A DNA stretch of 64,000 nucleotides from an uncultured Planctomycetota bacterium. GTDB taxonomy: Bacteria > Planctomycetota > Phycisphaerae > Tepidisphaerales > Tepidisphaeraceae. Numbering within the stretch: position 1 is the stretch's first letter; every line of letters begins with the position of its first letter. A program made the position numbers. The stretch lies in assembly GCA_963841915.1 (NCBI GenBank), contig CAWJEN010000005.1, positions 352,001 to 416,000 on the forward strand, read 5' to 3'. Shown in pieces: positions 19,600-28,500 of this stretch.

Positions 19600-22500
19600 G
19601 CCGCGAAGCACAGTGTACTTCTCGATCCGGGTCGGAAGCGGGACAGGCCCACAGACGTTGGCGTTCGTCCGCTTGGCCTGTTCAACGATCTCGCGAGCGC
19701 TGCTGTCGAGCGCCCGGTGGTCGTAAGCCTCCATACGGATGCGGATTCTGTCGCCGGTCATAGGTTCTCTGCGTTTCTCGTGCGGGTCAGTTCGGGCGGG
19801 GAGGCTAGGACAGGCGGCCGGTAAGTCAATCTGCCTTGCCCGCAAATCGCTCGATCGCACCGCGAACTGCTGCCTGATCAGGGTCTATCTGCAGGCTTTT
19901 TTGCCACACTTGCACCGCTTCGTCGACTAGTCGCTGCTCCAATCGCCCACCGGCGTCCCAAAGACGAAGCTTTGCAGAACCGGCAGCATTCAGCGCCCGT
20001 GGCTCGCGCGGAGCCCGCTCGACGGCCACATCAAGTGACCGGACCGCGTCGGTCAGCGTTCGACGGGCTGCGTCTGTTACGCCCATCGCCCGCTGGCGTT
20101 CTGCCTCAGCGGTCAACGCAAGGCCGATTGCGAGGGGCGGTTCGGGATCCCCGGGGCGAAGCTTCTCGGCTTGACGCAGACGGTCGATGGCAAGGGCGGT
20201 TTGTTCCCGCCGGGCGGCGTTGGTGCCGCTGAGGAGCAACAGGTCGTACCGGCCATCGGCGTCAGCGGGAAGCAGCTCAATTGCTCGCGTGTAAGCGTCG
20301 GCGGCTTGTCGCAGTTGCCCCGTCGCGTCCAATGCACGCCCGAGCAAGGCGACCGCTTCGCCGGAGACTTCATCGGCCGCGACGGCAGATTGCAGGTATG
20401 GCAGTGCCTCGTCGTGTCGATCCATCGCCACCAGCACGCGACCGGCACCAATGTTCGCGCCGAAGTCGCTCTCGGCATAGGCGAGCCCAGCCTGATACGT
20501 CACCAAGGCCTCGGGTAGCCGCCCCGCCGCCTCGATCGTGTCGCCCAAAGAGACGTAGTTGGCTGTCGTCTCTACGTCCCGCTCGACCAGGCGGCGGAAC
20601 CAACGTTCAGCCGTCGACAGCTCGTTGTCCTGGCGGGCAAGCTCGCCGAGCTCGCGGTTGACGAGGATGAGCGATGTGTCGGCAGCAGCGGCTTGCTCGT
20701 ACAGGCGGGCCGCCCTGTCGACGTCGCCCCGCTTTCGGGCGAGCTTGCCCTCGACATACAGGCCGAGCCCGCCTGCCGGTAACTCGGTGGCGACATATCT
20801 GCTCTGCGGCACGGGGTCACTGGACGAAGTGCAGCCAGCAAGAAGCGAGACAACGACGATGATCGGGAAGCAGCGGATCATGACATGGCTACTCGACACC
20901 CGACTCGACGGCGAATCGCGGTGGAGTATGGGACGATAGTCTTATCGGCCCGCAATTGCACGATGCGTTGATCAGCAGCGGCTTACACAAGTGTGCGGGC
21001 GCGGGCGTACCGGTCCATCAGTGGCGTGAGCAGGCTGACCAGCAGCAACGCGGCGAGCGGGCCGACATTGGGCTCACCGTACCGTTGTGCGGCGGCCATG
21101 GCCGGGCCGAGCAGCAGCGCAAAGACCAGTCGCCAACGACCCGCGACGGGTCGCAGGCTCGGTAACGGCGCGATCAACAGCGACGCGAACACGATCGGCC
21201 CACTCAGCAGCTCGTAATTCGCGAATGTGACGGCTACATCCCACGGCACCGCTCCGCCGATGAGCGGCCACGTCCAAGTCGGCCCACCGGGCGCGATGCT
21301 CGACGGGACCGGTAGCAGCGCGAAGGTCGCGTAGGCGGAGGCCAGCACCACCGTCGGAATGCGAGCGTCGATGACGCCTCGAAACAGCAGGATCATGCCG
21401 GCGGCTACGACCGCAGCGACGCTCGCCAGGCCGATCGGTCGCGGATGGCCGAGCAAGATGAGGTCTTCTGGTGGGGGCAACCGCTCACGAATGACCGAGT
21501 CAATCGTGTAGCGCTGCCGGGGCGGCCGATCGAGACCGCTTGCATAGACGCTTAGCACCGTCGACGCGCTCGGCTGAAACCTCGCGTCGGGCGATTCAGG
21601 CTCGGCCTCGCGGGACACGTAGGTGCCGGCAGACAGGTCGGCGATCGGGCGGCGGTCGTATTGGAGCAAATCACCGGTCACCGCCCGTTCGGCGCGTACG
21701 GCCAATCGCGGCACGATCGCATCGCCGAGCGTGAACGCAATGATAATGTACGCGACGAGCGCCGGCGAAACGCGACCACCCGCACGGCCGCCTAGAAGCC
21801 AAACCAAGAGCCCCAGCACCAACCCTGTCGCGGGCAGGATCGGCCAAAGCAGCGTCGGCTCGAGGCCGTCTGGCCCAGCAACGCCCGACGCCGCAAGGTG
21901 GGCCGGTAACAAAGAGCCGAGCAGCAAGCCCGACCACGTCGCGTGCGAGAGGTCAATCGTCGTGCCCTTGCGACCGACCCTTCGCAGCACCGCACAGGCC
22001 GCCACGGTGCCGGCGACGACGAGGCCCAGCACCACCGCCGCCCGCCAGCCGAAGACGATGAGGCCCGCCGCCAATGGCACGATCAAGGCCGTGATGTGGA
22101 CGGCTGTCCAGGCCCGCGTCGAATTGTTGGCAGCGGTGAGATTCACGGTCGGACTCGCACAATCCCACGACCTACGCCATCAGCATCGCCAAAAGCCCCT
22201 TCTGGGCGTGCAGGCGATTCTCAGCCTGCTCGAAGATGCGACTTTGCGGCGAGGCCATGACGTCGGCATCAATTTCCTCACCACGATGGGCAGGCAGGCA
22301 GTGCAGGACGATCGCATCAGGCTCGGCGGCGGCAAGCAGTGCGCCGGTGATGCCGTAACCGGCGAAGGCGGCTAGTCGCTTCTCCCGTTCGGCCTCTTGC
22401 CCCATGCTTGCCCAGACATCGGTATACAGCACGTCGCAAGCCTTGACCGCTTCCTGAGGGTCGGCGACCAGCGTCAGGTCGAGTGACGACACCTGCCGGC

Positions 22501-25500: not shown

Positions 25501-28500
25501 AGGCACATGGCGCGCCTCGACCCGCATACGCCTGCCCCGACAACTGGTGACGAGTCCCCGACCGTCGACGTCGGCAGCGTTCGGCTGATGTCCGTCAACA
25601 ACGCCTACCCTCAGGCCGATCCGACGCTGATGGCCTACGCACTCGCCGGGAAGCGGTTGCCCCCCGGGGCGTCACCGCTCGATGTAGGCGTGCTCGTCGT
25701 CGATGCCGTCGCTGCCGTTGCCGTCGGCCAGGTTGCACGTGGCTGCGCATGTGTGCGGACGGAGCCGATCGGCCTTCGCGACCACCGCACCGGTCTCGGC
25801 GTCCTGGCCAACGTCTGGCGTGGCAGCCGACTGTGCGACGTGCTGCTGTTCCTCGGACTTCAGCACCACGACTGCGAGCGCGACGACAAGGGCGAACCCA
25901 TACGAATTTGCGGCGGGGACTTCCTCAGAGGCAACGGACTCGATCCGGCGGCCATTGTCGGAAACGGCGAGCTGATCTTTCACATCGAGGCGGCAACGCC
26001 GACAGCCCCGCCTGAGCCGTGCATCCGGTGCGGCTGGTGCTTGGACATCTGCCCGACGGGGCTGAACCCGGCCGGTCTGCTCGATGCCGAGGCGGCGAAG
26101 CCGGACAAGCGGCATCAGCTCGCGATCCGCCACGGCGCCGACGCCTGCATCGGGTGCGGCCTGTGCGACTACGCGTGCCCGAGCAGCCTGCCTCTTCGCG
26201 ACGTCGCGACGAAGATGCGTGATTTTATCAAAGCGTCGGCATCGCCAGTTTCCGCAGAGGGCGATCCAGAAACACCGCAAGACGCTCTGCCATGAGCGCT
26301 TCGAGTGCCGCGACGCCTTCACCGGTGGTTGCGGAGACGGCTGGGCCGTCGGCTGGCGGCTGAGCTACGTCACACTTGTTCCACACAACGAGGTCTGCCC
26401 GCCCGGATGCCGAAGCGTCACCTGTCGCGTCGCGAACTTCGATGACTAGATCGGCCTGCTCGATGACCTCGCGCGACAAAACGATGGCCTTGCCCTCGAC
26501 GCCGCCTACGTTGCGCCTGCCCGGTGTGTCTGCCAGTCGCACCGGTAGCTGACCGTCGCACAAGATGGCGGGGGTCTCGACCCAATCGCGTGTCGTTCCC
26601 GGCTCATCAGCGACGAGGCTTGCCGCTCGGCCGACGAGGCGGTTCGACAACGAACTCTTGCCGACATTGGGCCGACCCACGATTGCGATCAGCGGCGGCA
26701 CCAGCAGACGAATCAATGTGAGATCCGCAGGATCGGCCTCGCCCTCCTGTTCCCGCTGAGCCAGTAGCAATCGCAGTCCCAGCTCTGTCGTCGCCTGCGG
26801 TAACCAGCGGTCGACCGGGCCACCGATGGCAGCGTCATCTCGCAAAAAGCCTGCGGCCATCGCGTCGTCAAAGAAGCACTCGACGATCCGCCTGCCGCCG
26901 TGAAAGTTGACGTCGAACCATTCGTCACCGCCTCGAACGAGCGGGTCGTCGAGGATGCTGCCGTTAGCCAGGGTCCAGGAGCCGTACACGAGCTGGCCCG
27001 GTGGCGGCAGCTTACCGAGTCGAGACCTGACGAAGTTTGCCGCCGCCCGCCCTTCGACCCGCACGACGGCAAGGGCCGCCATGCCGGGCGCGGTGAGGAG
27101 CCGGACGACGTTGTTCATGCAGATCGTTTCGAGTTGCTTAGTGTCCGCACTAGGACTTGTGCGTGATGTGGTGGTTCGCGTAGGCAAGCGCGATGCCGTA
27201 CAGCGTCAGGTCACGGCTGATGGCGTGGATGAGCTCGAACGGGTGGTCGCCACCAAAGAGCTCATGTGCGTCGCCGCCTGTGGCGATGACCTCTGGCCAT
27301 GTCGCCTGTTCCATGGCGTGTTGTTCGACGCTCTGGCGGACAAGGCCGCGAATGGCGTTGACGATGCCGCAGTTGATGGCGCCCGGCGTGTCGCGTCCGA
27401 AGGCGTCACCCGTTGCCGCCGGACGGACGGCCGGCAGGTGCGTTGCCGCGTCAGACAGGGACGACGCCATCAATGATGCACCGGGCGCGATGCATCCACC
27501 CAGGAACGTGCCGCTGTCGTCGCAGAAGTCGACGGTGACTGCCGTTCCGACGTCAACGATGATGCATGCCTTCTTGAGCTGCTCGTATGCCGCTGCAACG
27601 TTGAGCACGCGGTCGACGCCTGTCGACTGCGGCTGCTCCGTTGCGACGGCGATGGGCAATTCCACGTCTTTACCGACCCGGCCCGACCCGCTCCAGCCCG
27701 CTTGGCGGACCATGTGAGCGACATCGTCGACGAAAGCTCCGTTGCTGGCGGCGATGACGACGTCGCTGTCGAAGCCCTCGAGTTGTTCGCGTGCCTGCTC
27801 GACCGCGCCGGCAACGTTGTCGGGTGAGGCGACGTCTGCGCGCCACGATGCGACCAGATCACCCGCTTCGAACGCGCCGAGTTTGACCCGCGAGTGTCCT
27901 ACGTCGATTGCCAGCAGATTGATGTCAGCCACGCCGCACCGTAGCAACGGGCCCAGCGAGTCGCTATTGCGGCTCAGGGACGAAACGCGGGCCGTCGTCG
28001 GGTTCTTCGCCGCGTAATGCAGCCAGCAGGATGTCTCCGTACATGGCAACCCGGCGTGGCCCCATGCCCTTGACGGCGGCAAGGGCTTCGTCGTCGCCCG
28101 GCGCTTCCATCGCGATGAGACGAAGCGTCCGGTCGTTGCAGATGCAGTAGGCAGGTAGCCCCTTGTCACGGGCGAGCGTGCCGCGGGCGGTGCGAAGACG
28201 GTCGAACCGCTCACCGGCATCGGCGTCGAGTTGCATCGGCTTGGCCGACGTGGCCAACGTTGCACGTCGTCGCGGCACCAGGTCGTTCAGCGGTGCGGGC
28301 GGGTCGGCCAGCGCCTTCATGACCCGCACGCCACTGGCCGTCATTTTGACAACCTTGATGTGCGAATCACCATCGACGGCCGTCTGCTGGACGAGGCCGA
28401 CCTCGATCAGCCGGTGGACCATGGCGATGACCTGCTTGACGGTGAACTGCGAGAGCAGGCCGTGCGTCGAAAGCTTATCGAGGCCGCGACCGGTGACCTT

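Follow-up and report, generated by a model that had tools for sequence, protein, structure and literature searches.

A conserved RnfC-RnfD pair without flavin-attachment sites in Phycisphaerae, tentatively read as a membrane-anchored iron-sulfur relay

What can two Rnf subunits do once the rest of the complex is gone? The question is raised by a locus in the 64,000-nucleotide stretch of DNA analysed here (the window), from an uncultured planctomycete of the family Tepidisphaeraceae, where the survey's finding had placed a divergent RnfD and a divergent RnfC at 20983..26295. Both identifications were confirmed, by PF03116 and by the closest solved structures (9eri_D and 8ahx_D for the first protein, 8ahx_C for the second), and we refer to the proteins as D' and C'. 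As had been noted, three genes lie between them, namely argF, argB and a xylose-isomerase-like TIM barrel.

20983..22146, minus strand: D', RnfD-like membrane protein of 387 aa, modelled with ten long helices
21463..21480, minus strand: LPPPED, residues 223-228 of D', a new family motif (family RDxxPPLEDL)
21571..21588, minus strand: DARFQP, residues 187-192 of D', site of the lost FMN-threonine motif as aligned with 31 canonical RnfD
22172-23095, minus strand: argF, housekeeping gene, not part of the unit
23092-24075, minus strand: argB ORF, housekeeping gene, not part of the unit
24068..24910, plus strand: xylose-isomerase-like TIM barrel (PF01261), 23 nt upstream of C'
24934..26295, plus strand: C', RnfC-like protein of 453 aa from the ATG at 24934; the ORF is open from a GTG at 24844
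25258..25293, plus strand: replaced glycine-rich loop of C', canonically GxGGAxFPT, here GVRPDRVNCPDL, with family-invariant R, P and L
26020..26055, plus strand: first [4Fe-4S] motif of C', CIRCGWCLDICP, with a clade-specific Trp
26146..26181, plus strand: second [4Fe-4S] motif of C', CIGCGLCDYACP

PF03116, the only domain of D', scores 81 bits over its cut-off, whereas TIGR01946 reaches only 29 bits against a cut-off of 207. The D' model has the ten-helix RnfD fold (TM 0.61-0.69 to solved RnfD), and in the structural ranking RnfD and NqrB come first, followed by urea transporters (TM about 0.3-0.4); an ESM Atlas search returned PF03116 clusters only. Compared with RnfD, D' carries additional hairpins and motifs on its outer face. 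The first helix of the model begins at residue 10, and the N-terminal arm is short in the window's genus. C', encoded in an ORF at 24844-26295 with a likely start at the ATG preceded by AAGGAG, shows the RnfC fold with two [4Fe-4S] motifs (TM 0.75 to solved RnfC). It is structurally nearer to RnfC than to NqrA, and NqrA-NqrB provide the next-best matches of C' and D'. Both models are confident full folds (pLDDT 92.7 and 93.7).

The window's own genome, which is 93.8% complete, gave no match at E<=10 to PF02508, PF04205 or PF02424, in agreement with the survey's statement that RnfA/E and RnfG are missing from it. Very divergent RnfA/E, a reservation attached to that statement, were sought with planctomycete RnfA, RnfE and RnfG profiles, which found nothing better than E=3 at this sensitivity. 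An RnfB profile retrieved ferredoxin-type ORFs only, and ApbE, present in 62 of 141 Tepidisphaeraceae genomes (22 of the 72 high-quality ones), was not found. Across the family, PF02508 exceeded its cut-off in 0/141 genomes, and RnfA/E were absent in 36 of the 41 Phycisphaerae genomes tested. PF04205 occurred in 1 of 21 Tepidisphaeraceae genomes, and that genome has neither C' nor D'. The RnfG profile found nothing at the C'D' loci (best E 2.5); an ORF between D' and scpB at one of them (L104) is not RnfG-like.

The two remaining subunits have themselves been stripped. GxGGAxFP and ECEP, which we take to be the FMN/NAD(H) site of RnfC (motif roles by NuoF homology), have no counterpart in C': GxGGAxFP and EC[ED]P occur in 0/44 Tepidisphaeraceae C' and in 28/28 canonical RnfC, a count that bears out a loss earlier judged by eye. 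The glycine loop is likewise found in 0/120 basal-type C'; in 111 of these an E-x-[ED]-P remnant persists. The clusters, as previously reported, are another matter. Two CxxCxxCxxxCP motifs are present in 43/44 Tepidisphaeraceae C', and both Fe-S motifs in 119/120 basal-type C' and 19/19 further loci, with the glycine loop gone throughout. A Trp in CxxCxWC sets C' apart (119/120, 9/10 and 48/50, versus 0/28 canonical RnfC).

For D', the earlier conclusion that the threonine motif of covalent FMN is missing survives (0/114 D', made up of 0/29 basal, 0/10 and 0/75 Tepidisphaeraceae, versus 29/31 and 12/12 canonical RnfD), but the site had been misplaced. Against 31 canonical RnfD, ATPL aligns with D-A-x-x-x-[E]-P (DARFQP here) and not with [LM][PA]PL[EQ], which lies about 36 residues too far downstream, at LPPPED. 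Motif counts rather than column counts are used, since the D' segment is shorter by one residue and different alignments therefore put different residues in the Thr column; a T without the motif context stands there in 5/41 D'. The window's D' also lacks the riboflavin-site Asp/Asn and the FMN-pocket Arg/Glu, with S and L at the riboflavin-ligand columns (A. woodii N123 and D249), which were placed, inferentially, from the spacing of motifs relative to N122/D289 of E. coli RsxD. In Tepidisphaeraceae the riboflavin Asp column holds D in 5/75 and the Asn column N in 3/75 and H in 64/75, the FMN-pocket Arg has become Y/F, and the Glu has become small residues. This loss of the riboflavin site is an addition to the survey's finding. 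Basal D' retain D/E in 29/29 at the Asp column, Q/H/N in 27/29 at the Asn column, and the pocket Arg and Glu in 26/29 each, though the Thr motif is found in 0/29. Tyr/Phe occupies the FMN-contact residue in 29/29 basal and 66/75 Tepidisphaeraceae D', a swap that, judged from sequence, may plug the outer pocket.

Since the flavin-contact residues are gone and the A. woodii RnfD mutations N123A and D249A abolish activity (bioRxiv 2024.06.21.599731, in the portion cited here), an electron path through Tepidisphaeraceae D' is not evident. A serious though unlikely reading is that the pair is an Fe-S sensor or gate built on a transporter fold, in which the two opposed pockets of D', their flavins gone, would form a solute path or signalling switch and C' would read redox, oxygen or iron-sulfur status. 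Tepidisphaeraceae have lost all known flavin contacts while the clusters remain, and near-invariant new polar residues (H, GD, RD, PPxED, TFxNYE, Q) line the D' outer face in this family. The pair is kept with or without a second Rnf and with or without quinone synthesis, and the urea transporters that rank next after RnfD/NqrB have a published relation to this fold (PMC12174285, in part). However, the new motifs are not the same from family to family, which fits surface drift equally well; basal forms retain flavin-contact residues, no regulator or transport partner is conserved near the pair, and the interior of A. woodii RnfD was dry in the simulations of the same preprint, as far as its cited portion goes. 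More specific, and distinctly unlikely in our view, is the idea that the Tepidisphaeraceae pair has left flavin chemistry and that a respiratory electron-transfer subunit has reverted, on its ancestral urea/ammonium-transporter fold, to a channel or receptor, with the C' clusters as gate or readout. If true, Fe-S control of a membrane device would here take a new form, whose stepwise path can still be seen at one locus across living families, and the same step would perhaps have been taken more than once in bacteria and archaea.

The survey had described the pair as near-universal in the family, which holds in the larger sample: D' is present in 133/141 Tepidisphaeraceae genomes (68/72 high-quality) and C' in 121/141 (67/72), although 4 of the 121 match only weakly, at about E 1e-4, and might be Fe-S proteins of another kind. 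Its frame of one family is too narrow, as the pair occurs class-wide in Phycisphaerae, in about 129/251 genomes. It is missing from at least six families of the class in our sample and is therefore not essential class-wide. In one family, 33/35 genomes carry a second, canonical RnfD alongside it. A cultured carrier is Fontivita pretiosa (locus L155). In other planctomycete classes, 26 genomes gave full-length matches of 143-192 bits; 20 of these were rescored and rejected, because canonical RnfC/RnfD profiles scored far higher in 20/20.

Sequences diverge fast within Tepidisphaeraceae (identity about 30-55%), and the pair is under purifying selection, with dN/dS of 0.05-0.32 in the 14 closest D' pairs out of 22 and of 0.19-0.31 in each of the 4 C' pairs. 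Furthermore, five C'-D' fusion proteins occur among the best 150 representatives, at three places in the C' tree, and two of them belong to clusters in which several members, from separate assemblies, are full-length. Fusions to other domains were sought among longer relatives without result, but the same search missed even the known C'-D' fusions and so carries no weight. These observations bear on whether we are looking at a decaying Rnf leftover, or at an Rnf whose other subunits were overlooked. Scores far under the RnfC/RnfD cut-offs and broken copies in a few assemblies would suit either, but the retention, the dN/dS values well below 1, the fusions, the confident folds, the absence of RnfA/E from the family genomes and from most of the class genomes tested, and the negative profiles in the own genome make it very hard to believe.

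In origin, the pair is supported as what remains of a split rnf system (rnfCDG in one place, rnfEA in another), namely its rnfC-rnfD half; synteny and tree both link it to the rnfCDG locus found in sister families. The gene order PPIase-dapL-rnfC-rnfD-rnfG-scpB of families f3 and f11 recurs without rnfG in f9, f6 and f17. On an LG+G4 quick tree, a clade of D' with the f3/f11 rnfCDG copies is not rejected (p-AU 0.70, with a likelihood above the free tree), and the test does reject one of D' with co-resident contiguous Rnf operons (p-AU 0.012). Descent by duplication of a same-genome Rnf operon is rejected by this test and by synteny. The f3/f11 genes are not an orphan module, as RnfA/E lie elsewhere in 10/10 genomes. 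A series can be followed at one locus, from intact rnfCDG with rnfEA elsewhere (two families), through C'D' with the riboflavin-site acid (several families, where a second, canonical Rnf is often present as well), to the fully stripped C'D' of Tepidisphaeraceae.

The usual adjacency of the two genes, also reported before, was found as a C'->D' tandem within 1.5 kb in 79 of the 114 genomes with both; the others have them near (6), far apart (1) or on different contigs (28). In the window's genus, argF and argB separate D' from C'. The TIM barrel is the usual first gene of the operon in Tepidisphaeraceae (43/62 loci with enough flank) but was seen beside the pair in no other family, and it is probably a neighbour rather than a subunit; no other candidate for a third subunit is conserved. 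A promoter scan gave 0 sites against 0.7 expected, and terminator-like matches fall within genes. Across families, the pair has no conserved donor or acceptor gene next to it. The neighbours are housekeeping genes and include lpxA, dxr-rseP, a SurA-like PPIase and scpB. A role as electron donor to the MEP pathway, suggested by dxr beside the pair in several loci and ispH in one, found no support; IspH, present in 246/251 class genomes, families without the pair included, is uninformative on this link.

Such envelope and housekeeping neighbours, together with the fast divergence, could also suit a structural scaffold that anchors or stabilises another membrane machine, its clusters holding the fold, much like NqrA, which has lost every cofactor and to which a structural role is ascribed (PMC4014512, in the portion cited). 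We consider this quite improbable, given that NqrA lost its cysteines whereas C' retains all eight and gained a Trp, that no third gene follows the pair, and that several families do without it.

The other parallel with NqrA-NqrB is a quinone-linked oxidoreductase, in which C' would move electrons between a soluble carrier and D'-bound menaquinone. NqrB carries out electron transfer from riboflavin to quinone, the riboflavin-side position of D' is His in the 64/75 Tepidisphaeraceae sequences and in 10/10 from families f5, f7 and f15, and the futalosine family PF02621 was found in 35/35 sampled f1, 33/35 f5 and 10/10 f4 genomes. Yet D' occurs in 35/35 f2 and 3/3 f6 genomes, with PF02621 in only 18/35 and 0/3. 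Five carriers (95-97% complete, C'D' intact) have neither MqnE nor MenB, which weakens a quinone role, although three of them encode a MenA-like prenyltransferase below the cut-off (8/13 UbiA-family matches scanned), so that quinone scavenging is possible. The D' model, whose first helix starts at residue 10, also lacks the pair of amphipathic helices on which the quinone site of NqrB is built. We hold this alternative to be improbable.

The reading that we prefer, with somewhat less than even confidence, is a membrane-anchored one-electron Fe-S relay descended from rnfC-rnfD. Loss of rnfG, E, A and B would have left a two-subunit membrane complex, and a cytoplasmic one-electron carrier or enzyme of ferredoxin or flavodoxin type, encoded elsewhere, would swap electrons with the [4Fe-4S] clusters of C'. 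The new Trp by the first cluster motif would occupy the former place of the flavin, and the second cluster would face the cytoplasmic-side pocket of D', which probably still holds riboflavin in basal families and appears remodelled in Tepidisphaeraceae. C' and D' very probably bind each other. A complex prediction scored 0.54 versus 0.00 for the best control, weak support on a mark reached by 116/157 solved complexes and 2/215 mismatches; 18/157 complexes, and the same two mismatches, reached it at <=0.60. Between runs, >=82% of contacts agree, with partner pLDDT >=80, and the pass may stem from likeness to solved Rnf. The clusters are probably redox-active, to go by their conserved motifs, and electron relay rather than sensing is a tentative choice of job. 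Nqr/Rnf-like systems set a precedent, with an RnfD-like conduit that lacks the Thr (PMC10979944, in part). Further points against the relay are the split genes and the short N-terminal arm of D' in the window's genus, and the fact that Fe-S motifs can also serve structure or sensing.

From the missing subunits and sites, the pair should be unable to pump ions or turn over NAD(H). What stands of the survey's two-subunit redox unit that is not an ion-pumping Rnf is a conserved, Rnf-derived pair without flavin-attachment sites; its redox role is read from the Fe-S motifs. Our literature search found no paper on the pair. Databases name its proteins 'RnfABCDGE electron transport complex subunit C/D', and Phycisphaerae of soil, peat, freshwater and sediment are therefore credited with an Rnf that they lack.

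It is important to consider how the pair relates to known systems. With Rnf (RnfABCDGE/RsxABCDGE; PDB 7ZC6, 8AHX, 9ERI) it shares both folds, the C-then-D order, two [4Fe-4S] motifs and descent; it differs in lacking RnfA, B, E and G, the FMN/NADH motifs of C' and the covalent-FMN Thr of D', in riboflavin residues that are altered (basal) or lost (Tepidisphaeraceae), and in its natural fusions and outer-face hairpins. The two-subunit Nqr/Rnf-like systems of Actinobacteria and CPR are likewise partial Rnf-derived units with an RnfD-like domain without the flavinylated Thr; in the portions cited here, they are proposed to be one-way electron conduits and have the RnfD-like protein fused to NAD-binding PF00175, with a flavinylated RnfG-like partner in an ApbE cluster (Meheust 2021, PMC8238504; PMC10979944). 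In C'D', by contrast, the partner is a flavin-less Fe-S RnfC, RnfG and often ApbE are absent, no flavinylated RnfG-like partner lies in an ApbE cluster, and the long forms found are C'-D' fusions rather than PF00175 fusions. PduS and PrdC are stand-alone RnfC relatives outside Rnf; both are soluble, PduS is flavin/NADH-competent, and we know of no RnfD-like membrane partner for either. They resemble C' as RnfC-type proteins outside Rnf. NqrA-NqrB of Na+-NQR are an independent RnfC/RnfD pair whose C subunit also lacks FMN and NAD binding, although neither NqrD/E (PF02508), NqrC (PF04205) nor a cofactor-less NqrA accompanies the pair described here. Within that six-subunit pump NqrA has given up its clusters, and NqrB still carries both flavins and has acquired a quinone site, whereas C'D' stands alone, with clusters kept and flavin attachment lost. 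As a natural experiment on the RnfC-RnfD arm the pair is the second and is independent of the first; it mirrors NqrA-NqrB, and its intermediate stages are alive at one locus. Through it one can ask which cofactors are required by the arm and what the RnfD fold does without FMN, and the fused single-chain forms make expression simple.

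In the window, an RnfD-like membrane protein (D') and an RnfC-like protein with two [4Fe-4S] motifs (C') are divergently oriented, with three unrelated genes in between:

19826-20899, minus strand: putative lipoprotein with TPR repeats, flanked by D' and by rpsJ, the first gene of the S10 ribosomal operon
20983-22146, minus strand: D', 387 aa; PF03116 at 81 bits, above the Pfam cut-off
Between D' and C': argF, argB and a xylose-isomerase-like TIM barrel
24844-26295, plus strand: open reading frame of C', probable start ATG at 24934, preceded by AAGGAG
26228-27187, minus strand: short MnmE-like GTPase, about 300 aa, with a TrmE_N remnant and a G domain (99 bits; cut-off, 380); it follows a type III pantothenate kinase
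32082-40133, plus strand: 2683-aa open reading frame, probably secreted, with fibronectin-like and sugar-binding-like repeated segments (by eye only)

D', argF and argB are all oriented toward the lipoprotein gene, and an MnmE-like GTPase with a type III pantothenate kinase also lies near the pair in three further Tepidisphaeraceae loci. In profile searches, D' scored 29 bits with the RnfD profile TIGR01946, whose cut-off is 207, and its best solved relatives were the RnfD chains 9eri_D, 8ahx_D, and 7zc6_D. C' joins a NuoF-type PF01512 domain to a ferredoxin domain and scored 77 bits with TIGR01945 (cut-off, 246), with 8ahx_C as its best solved relative. The AlphaFold2 models were confident (pLDDT 92.7 for D' and 93.7 for C', the latter modeled from position 24937 on and so lacking its Met). 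Foldseek ranked RnfD first for D' (TM 0.61 to 0.69 for the top three), followed by NqrB and then urea transporters, and RnfC first for C' (TM 0.75 to 0.76), followed by NqrA.

The remaining Rnf subunits were sought in the same genome (93.8% complete), where PF02508 (RnfA/E), PF04205, and ApbE gave no match at E<=10, control genomes being positive. Custom profiles built from planctomycete and Escherichia coli sequences (9 rows for RnfA, 35 for RnfE, 20 for RnfG, and 9 for RnfB) were run over its 33,719 six-frame ORFs; RnfA, RnfE, and RnfG found nothing better than E=3, and RnfB found ferredoxin-type ORFs only. Across the family, D' was present in 133/141 genomes (68/72 of high quality) and C' in 121/141 (67/72), four weak C' matches of which may be other Fe-S proteins; these tallies take in G062, a genome marked unpublished, on which no claim depends alone. 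PF02508 above its cut-off occurred in 0/141, ApbE in 62/141 (22/72 of high quality), and PF04205 in 1 of 21 genomes, that one having neither C' nor D'. Among the 114 genomes with both genes, counted without G062 and C' matches weaker than E 6e-9, C' directly preceded D' in 79; the two were arranged otherwise but within 3 kb in 6 (the window included), far apart in 1, and on different contigs in 28. In G048 they lie 3.1 Mb apart. Two genera (G072-G075 of g45, G130-G133 of g73) had D' and no match in a search with the window's C' protein; C' may be lost or too divergent there. In G101, G090, G111, G112, G124, G096, and G021, mostly few-contig assemblies 66 to 89% complete, D' or C' is split into two frames, probably by sequencing errors. 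Most named records in the D' family belong to Tepidisphaeraceae or Tepidisphaerales, and the cultured Fontivita pretiosa is among the named records, which supports the family name used in the survey's finding. Three loci from records titled Bacillota, Granulicella, and Planctomycetaceae (L221, L222, and L209) carry a Tepidisphaeraceae-type D' with the TIM barrel; these are more probably cases of mis-binning or loose labels than of transfer.

C'D' is a class-wide feature of the Phycisphaerae, whose families are designated here f1 (Tepidisphaeraceae) to f22. The D' profile matched 155/251 sampled genomes at E<=1e-28. We read 26 of these as cross-matches to canonical RnfD (f3, 20; f11, 4; f13, 1; f16, 1), having checked 12 f3/f11 loci, and their removal leaves about 129 genomes with D'. 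It was found in 36/36 genomes of f1, 35/35 of f2, 10/10 of f4, 33/35 of f5, 3/3 of f6, 5/10 of f7, and 2/2 of f9, as well as in single genomes of f15, f17, f18, f19, and f20; among the sampled genomes of f8, f10, f12, f14, f21, and f22, the profile had no match. From the 93 D' genomes outside f1, 39 were fetched, of which 38 had tandem C'-D' and 1 had D' alone. Outside the class, the 20 best matches fetched were all canonical, and for the C' profile, the named database matches among the best 120 of 1172 were Phycisphaerae or Planctomycetota. Weak PF03116 matches in frames of 660 to 710 aa from f18 and f4 represent another RnfD-like fusion family (G209:C2:159060, G269:C31:37453, G183:C1:416568, G203:C8:38205, G227:C1:1922054). 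RnfA/E was absent from 36/41 class genomes picked for divergent PF03116 matches. Since a canonical-scoring RnfD is also present in 33/35 f2 genomes, and RnfA/E operons accompany C'D' in G143, G148, and G285, the pair is no stand-in for Rnf.

In Rnf, as described in PMC9588780 and PMC12174285, FMN is bound covalently to a threonine of RnfD, riboflavin is held by an Asn and an Asp, and RnfC carries FMN and two [4Fe-4S] clusters; N123A and D249A abolish activity, according to bioRxiv 2024.06.21.599731. Published residue numbers were placed on E. coli RsxD through motif spacing, an inferred mapping. Alignment to 31 canonical RnfD sequences puts the QATPL motif on D-A-x-x-x-[E]-P of D' (residues 187 to 192 of the window protein). 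The survey had placed it at [LM]PPLE, about 36 residues too far downstream, yet its conclusion that the threonine motif is lost holds: the motif occurs in 29/31 and 12/12 canonical proteins vs 0/29, 0/10, and 0/75 D', and a T stands in the motif column, without the motif itself, in 5/41 D'. In family D', the riboflavin Asp is kept in 5/75, the Asn is replaced by His in 64/75, and neither the Arg nor the Glu of the FMN pocket remains. In the families that keep the riboflavin-site acid (basal), D' has D/E at the Asp (29/29), Q/H/N at the Asn (27/29), the FMN-pocket Arg and Glu (26/29 each), and Tyr/Phe at an FMN-contact position (29/29). Family C' retains both CxxCxxCxxxCP motifs in 43/44. The GxGGAxFP loop and EC[ED]P, present in 28/28 canonical RnfC, are found in 0/44 family C', as are the conserved Lys and Asn; the roles of these two motifs are presumably those of their NuoF homologs. 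New invariants (R, P, Q, C, and D) appear in place of the lost motifs, and a Trp lies within the first cluster motif in 119/120, 9/10, and 48/50 of the C' groups vs 0/28 canonical RnfC. The basal families represent the middle step, with the Thr motif and Gly loop lost and the riboflavin and FMN-pocket residues kept; Tepidisphaeraceae, f5, and f7 are further along the loss series. Among 22 D' pairs, the 14 closest gave dN/dS values of 0.05 to 0.32; for C', 4/4 pairs gave 0.19 to 0.31.

Canonical rnf is split in f3 and f11: rnfC-rnfD-rnfG, with all motifs intact, precedes scpB in 12/12 fetched loci (L263-L274), with a SurA-like PPIase and dapL upstream in f11, and RnfA/E lies at another locus in 10/10 genomes tested. 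The RnfD flavin site there is often Ser in place of Thr (e.g., GPSP, GASP). The same order without rnfG surrounds C'D' as PPIase-dapL-C'-D'-scpB (f9), dapL-C'-D'-scpB (f6), and C'-D'-scpB (f17), and the PPIase precedes C' in f2. In quick trees, all D' and all C' were set off from canonical proteins by a branch with 100% SH-aLRT. Constraining D' with the rnfCDG copies gave a likelihood above that of the free search (p-AU 0.70), and grouping it with the co-resident contiguous operons was rejected (p-AU 0.012). The test used LG+G4 and excluded three long rows. Shared synteny and this test thus bear out the survey's term "remnant" as a statement of descent.

C'-D' fusions of 792 to 856 aa with both Fe-S motifs were seen in 5 of the 150 best representatives. 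They occupy three positions in the C' tree, and two of them belong to clusters to which different assemblies contribute several full-length members. Complex prediction for the window proteins gave weak support (0.54 vs 0.00 for the best control), a score that likeness to solved Rnf can explain. No third gene conserved beside the pair across families was found; the TIM barrel precedes it in 43/62 family loci with enough flank and not in other families, and further neighbors are dxr-rseP, lpxA, argFB, and scpB. Single loci have adjoining Fe-S enzyme genes with no cross-family pattern (ispH, mqnE, nadA, nth; L116:7434-8465, L125:8084-9298, L114:4094-5419, L109:3981-4922). The ispH match of the genome holding the window (G000:C6:1733907-1734623) covers only profile positions 1-240/282 within a 261-aa open frame, possibly through an assembly frameshift. 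No support was found for a role of the pair in the MEP pathway.

By analogy with the cited structures, there would be no pump for lack of RnfA/E, no hydride chemistry for lack of FMN in C', and no flavinylated shuttle on the outer side for lack of RnfG, the Thr, and often ApbE. Selection retains the two-cluster wire of C', probably seated against the inner face of D', whose membrane-side site would be riboflavin in basal forms. We tentatively propose, at somewhat short of an even chance, that C'D' relays single electrons between a cytoplasmic carrier and this site. An Fe-S sensor or gate on a transporter fold is a somewhat less likely alternative, and a scaffold or a quinone enzyme is less probable than either. 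A test weakened the quinone enzyme: PF02621 occurs in 18/35 f2 and 0/3 f6 genomes, and five carriers lack both MqnE and MenB, though a MenA-like gene is present in three of the five.

No description was found in the literature on rnfCD, partial Rnf systems, or Rnf in Phycisphaerae or Tepidisphaera/Humisphaera, in a search that covered few subscription papers and no supplements; passages of PMC4897734 mention solely nitrogenase-associated rnf. We conclude that the RnfC-RnfD arm has in C'D' a genuine variant that is under selection and undescribed. It belongs to neither Rnf nor Na+-NQR, nor to the two-subunit Nqr/Rnf-like systems as outlined in PMC8238504 and PMC10979944, with which it nevertheless shares the loss of the Thr, and it parallels the story of NqrA told in PMC4014512.
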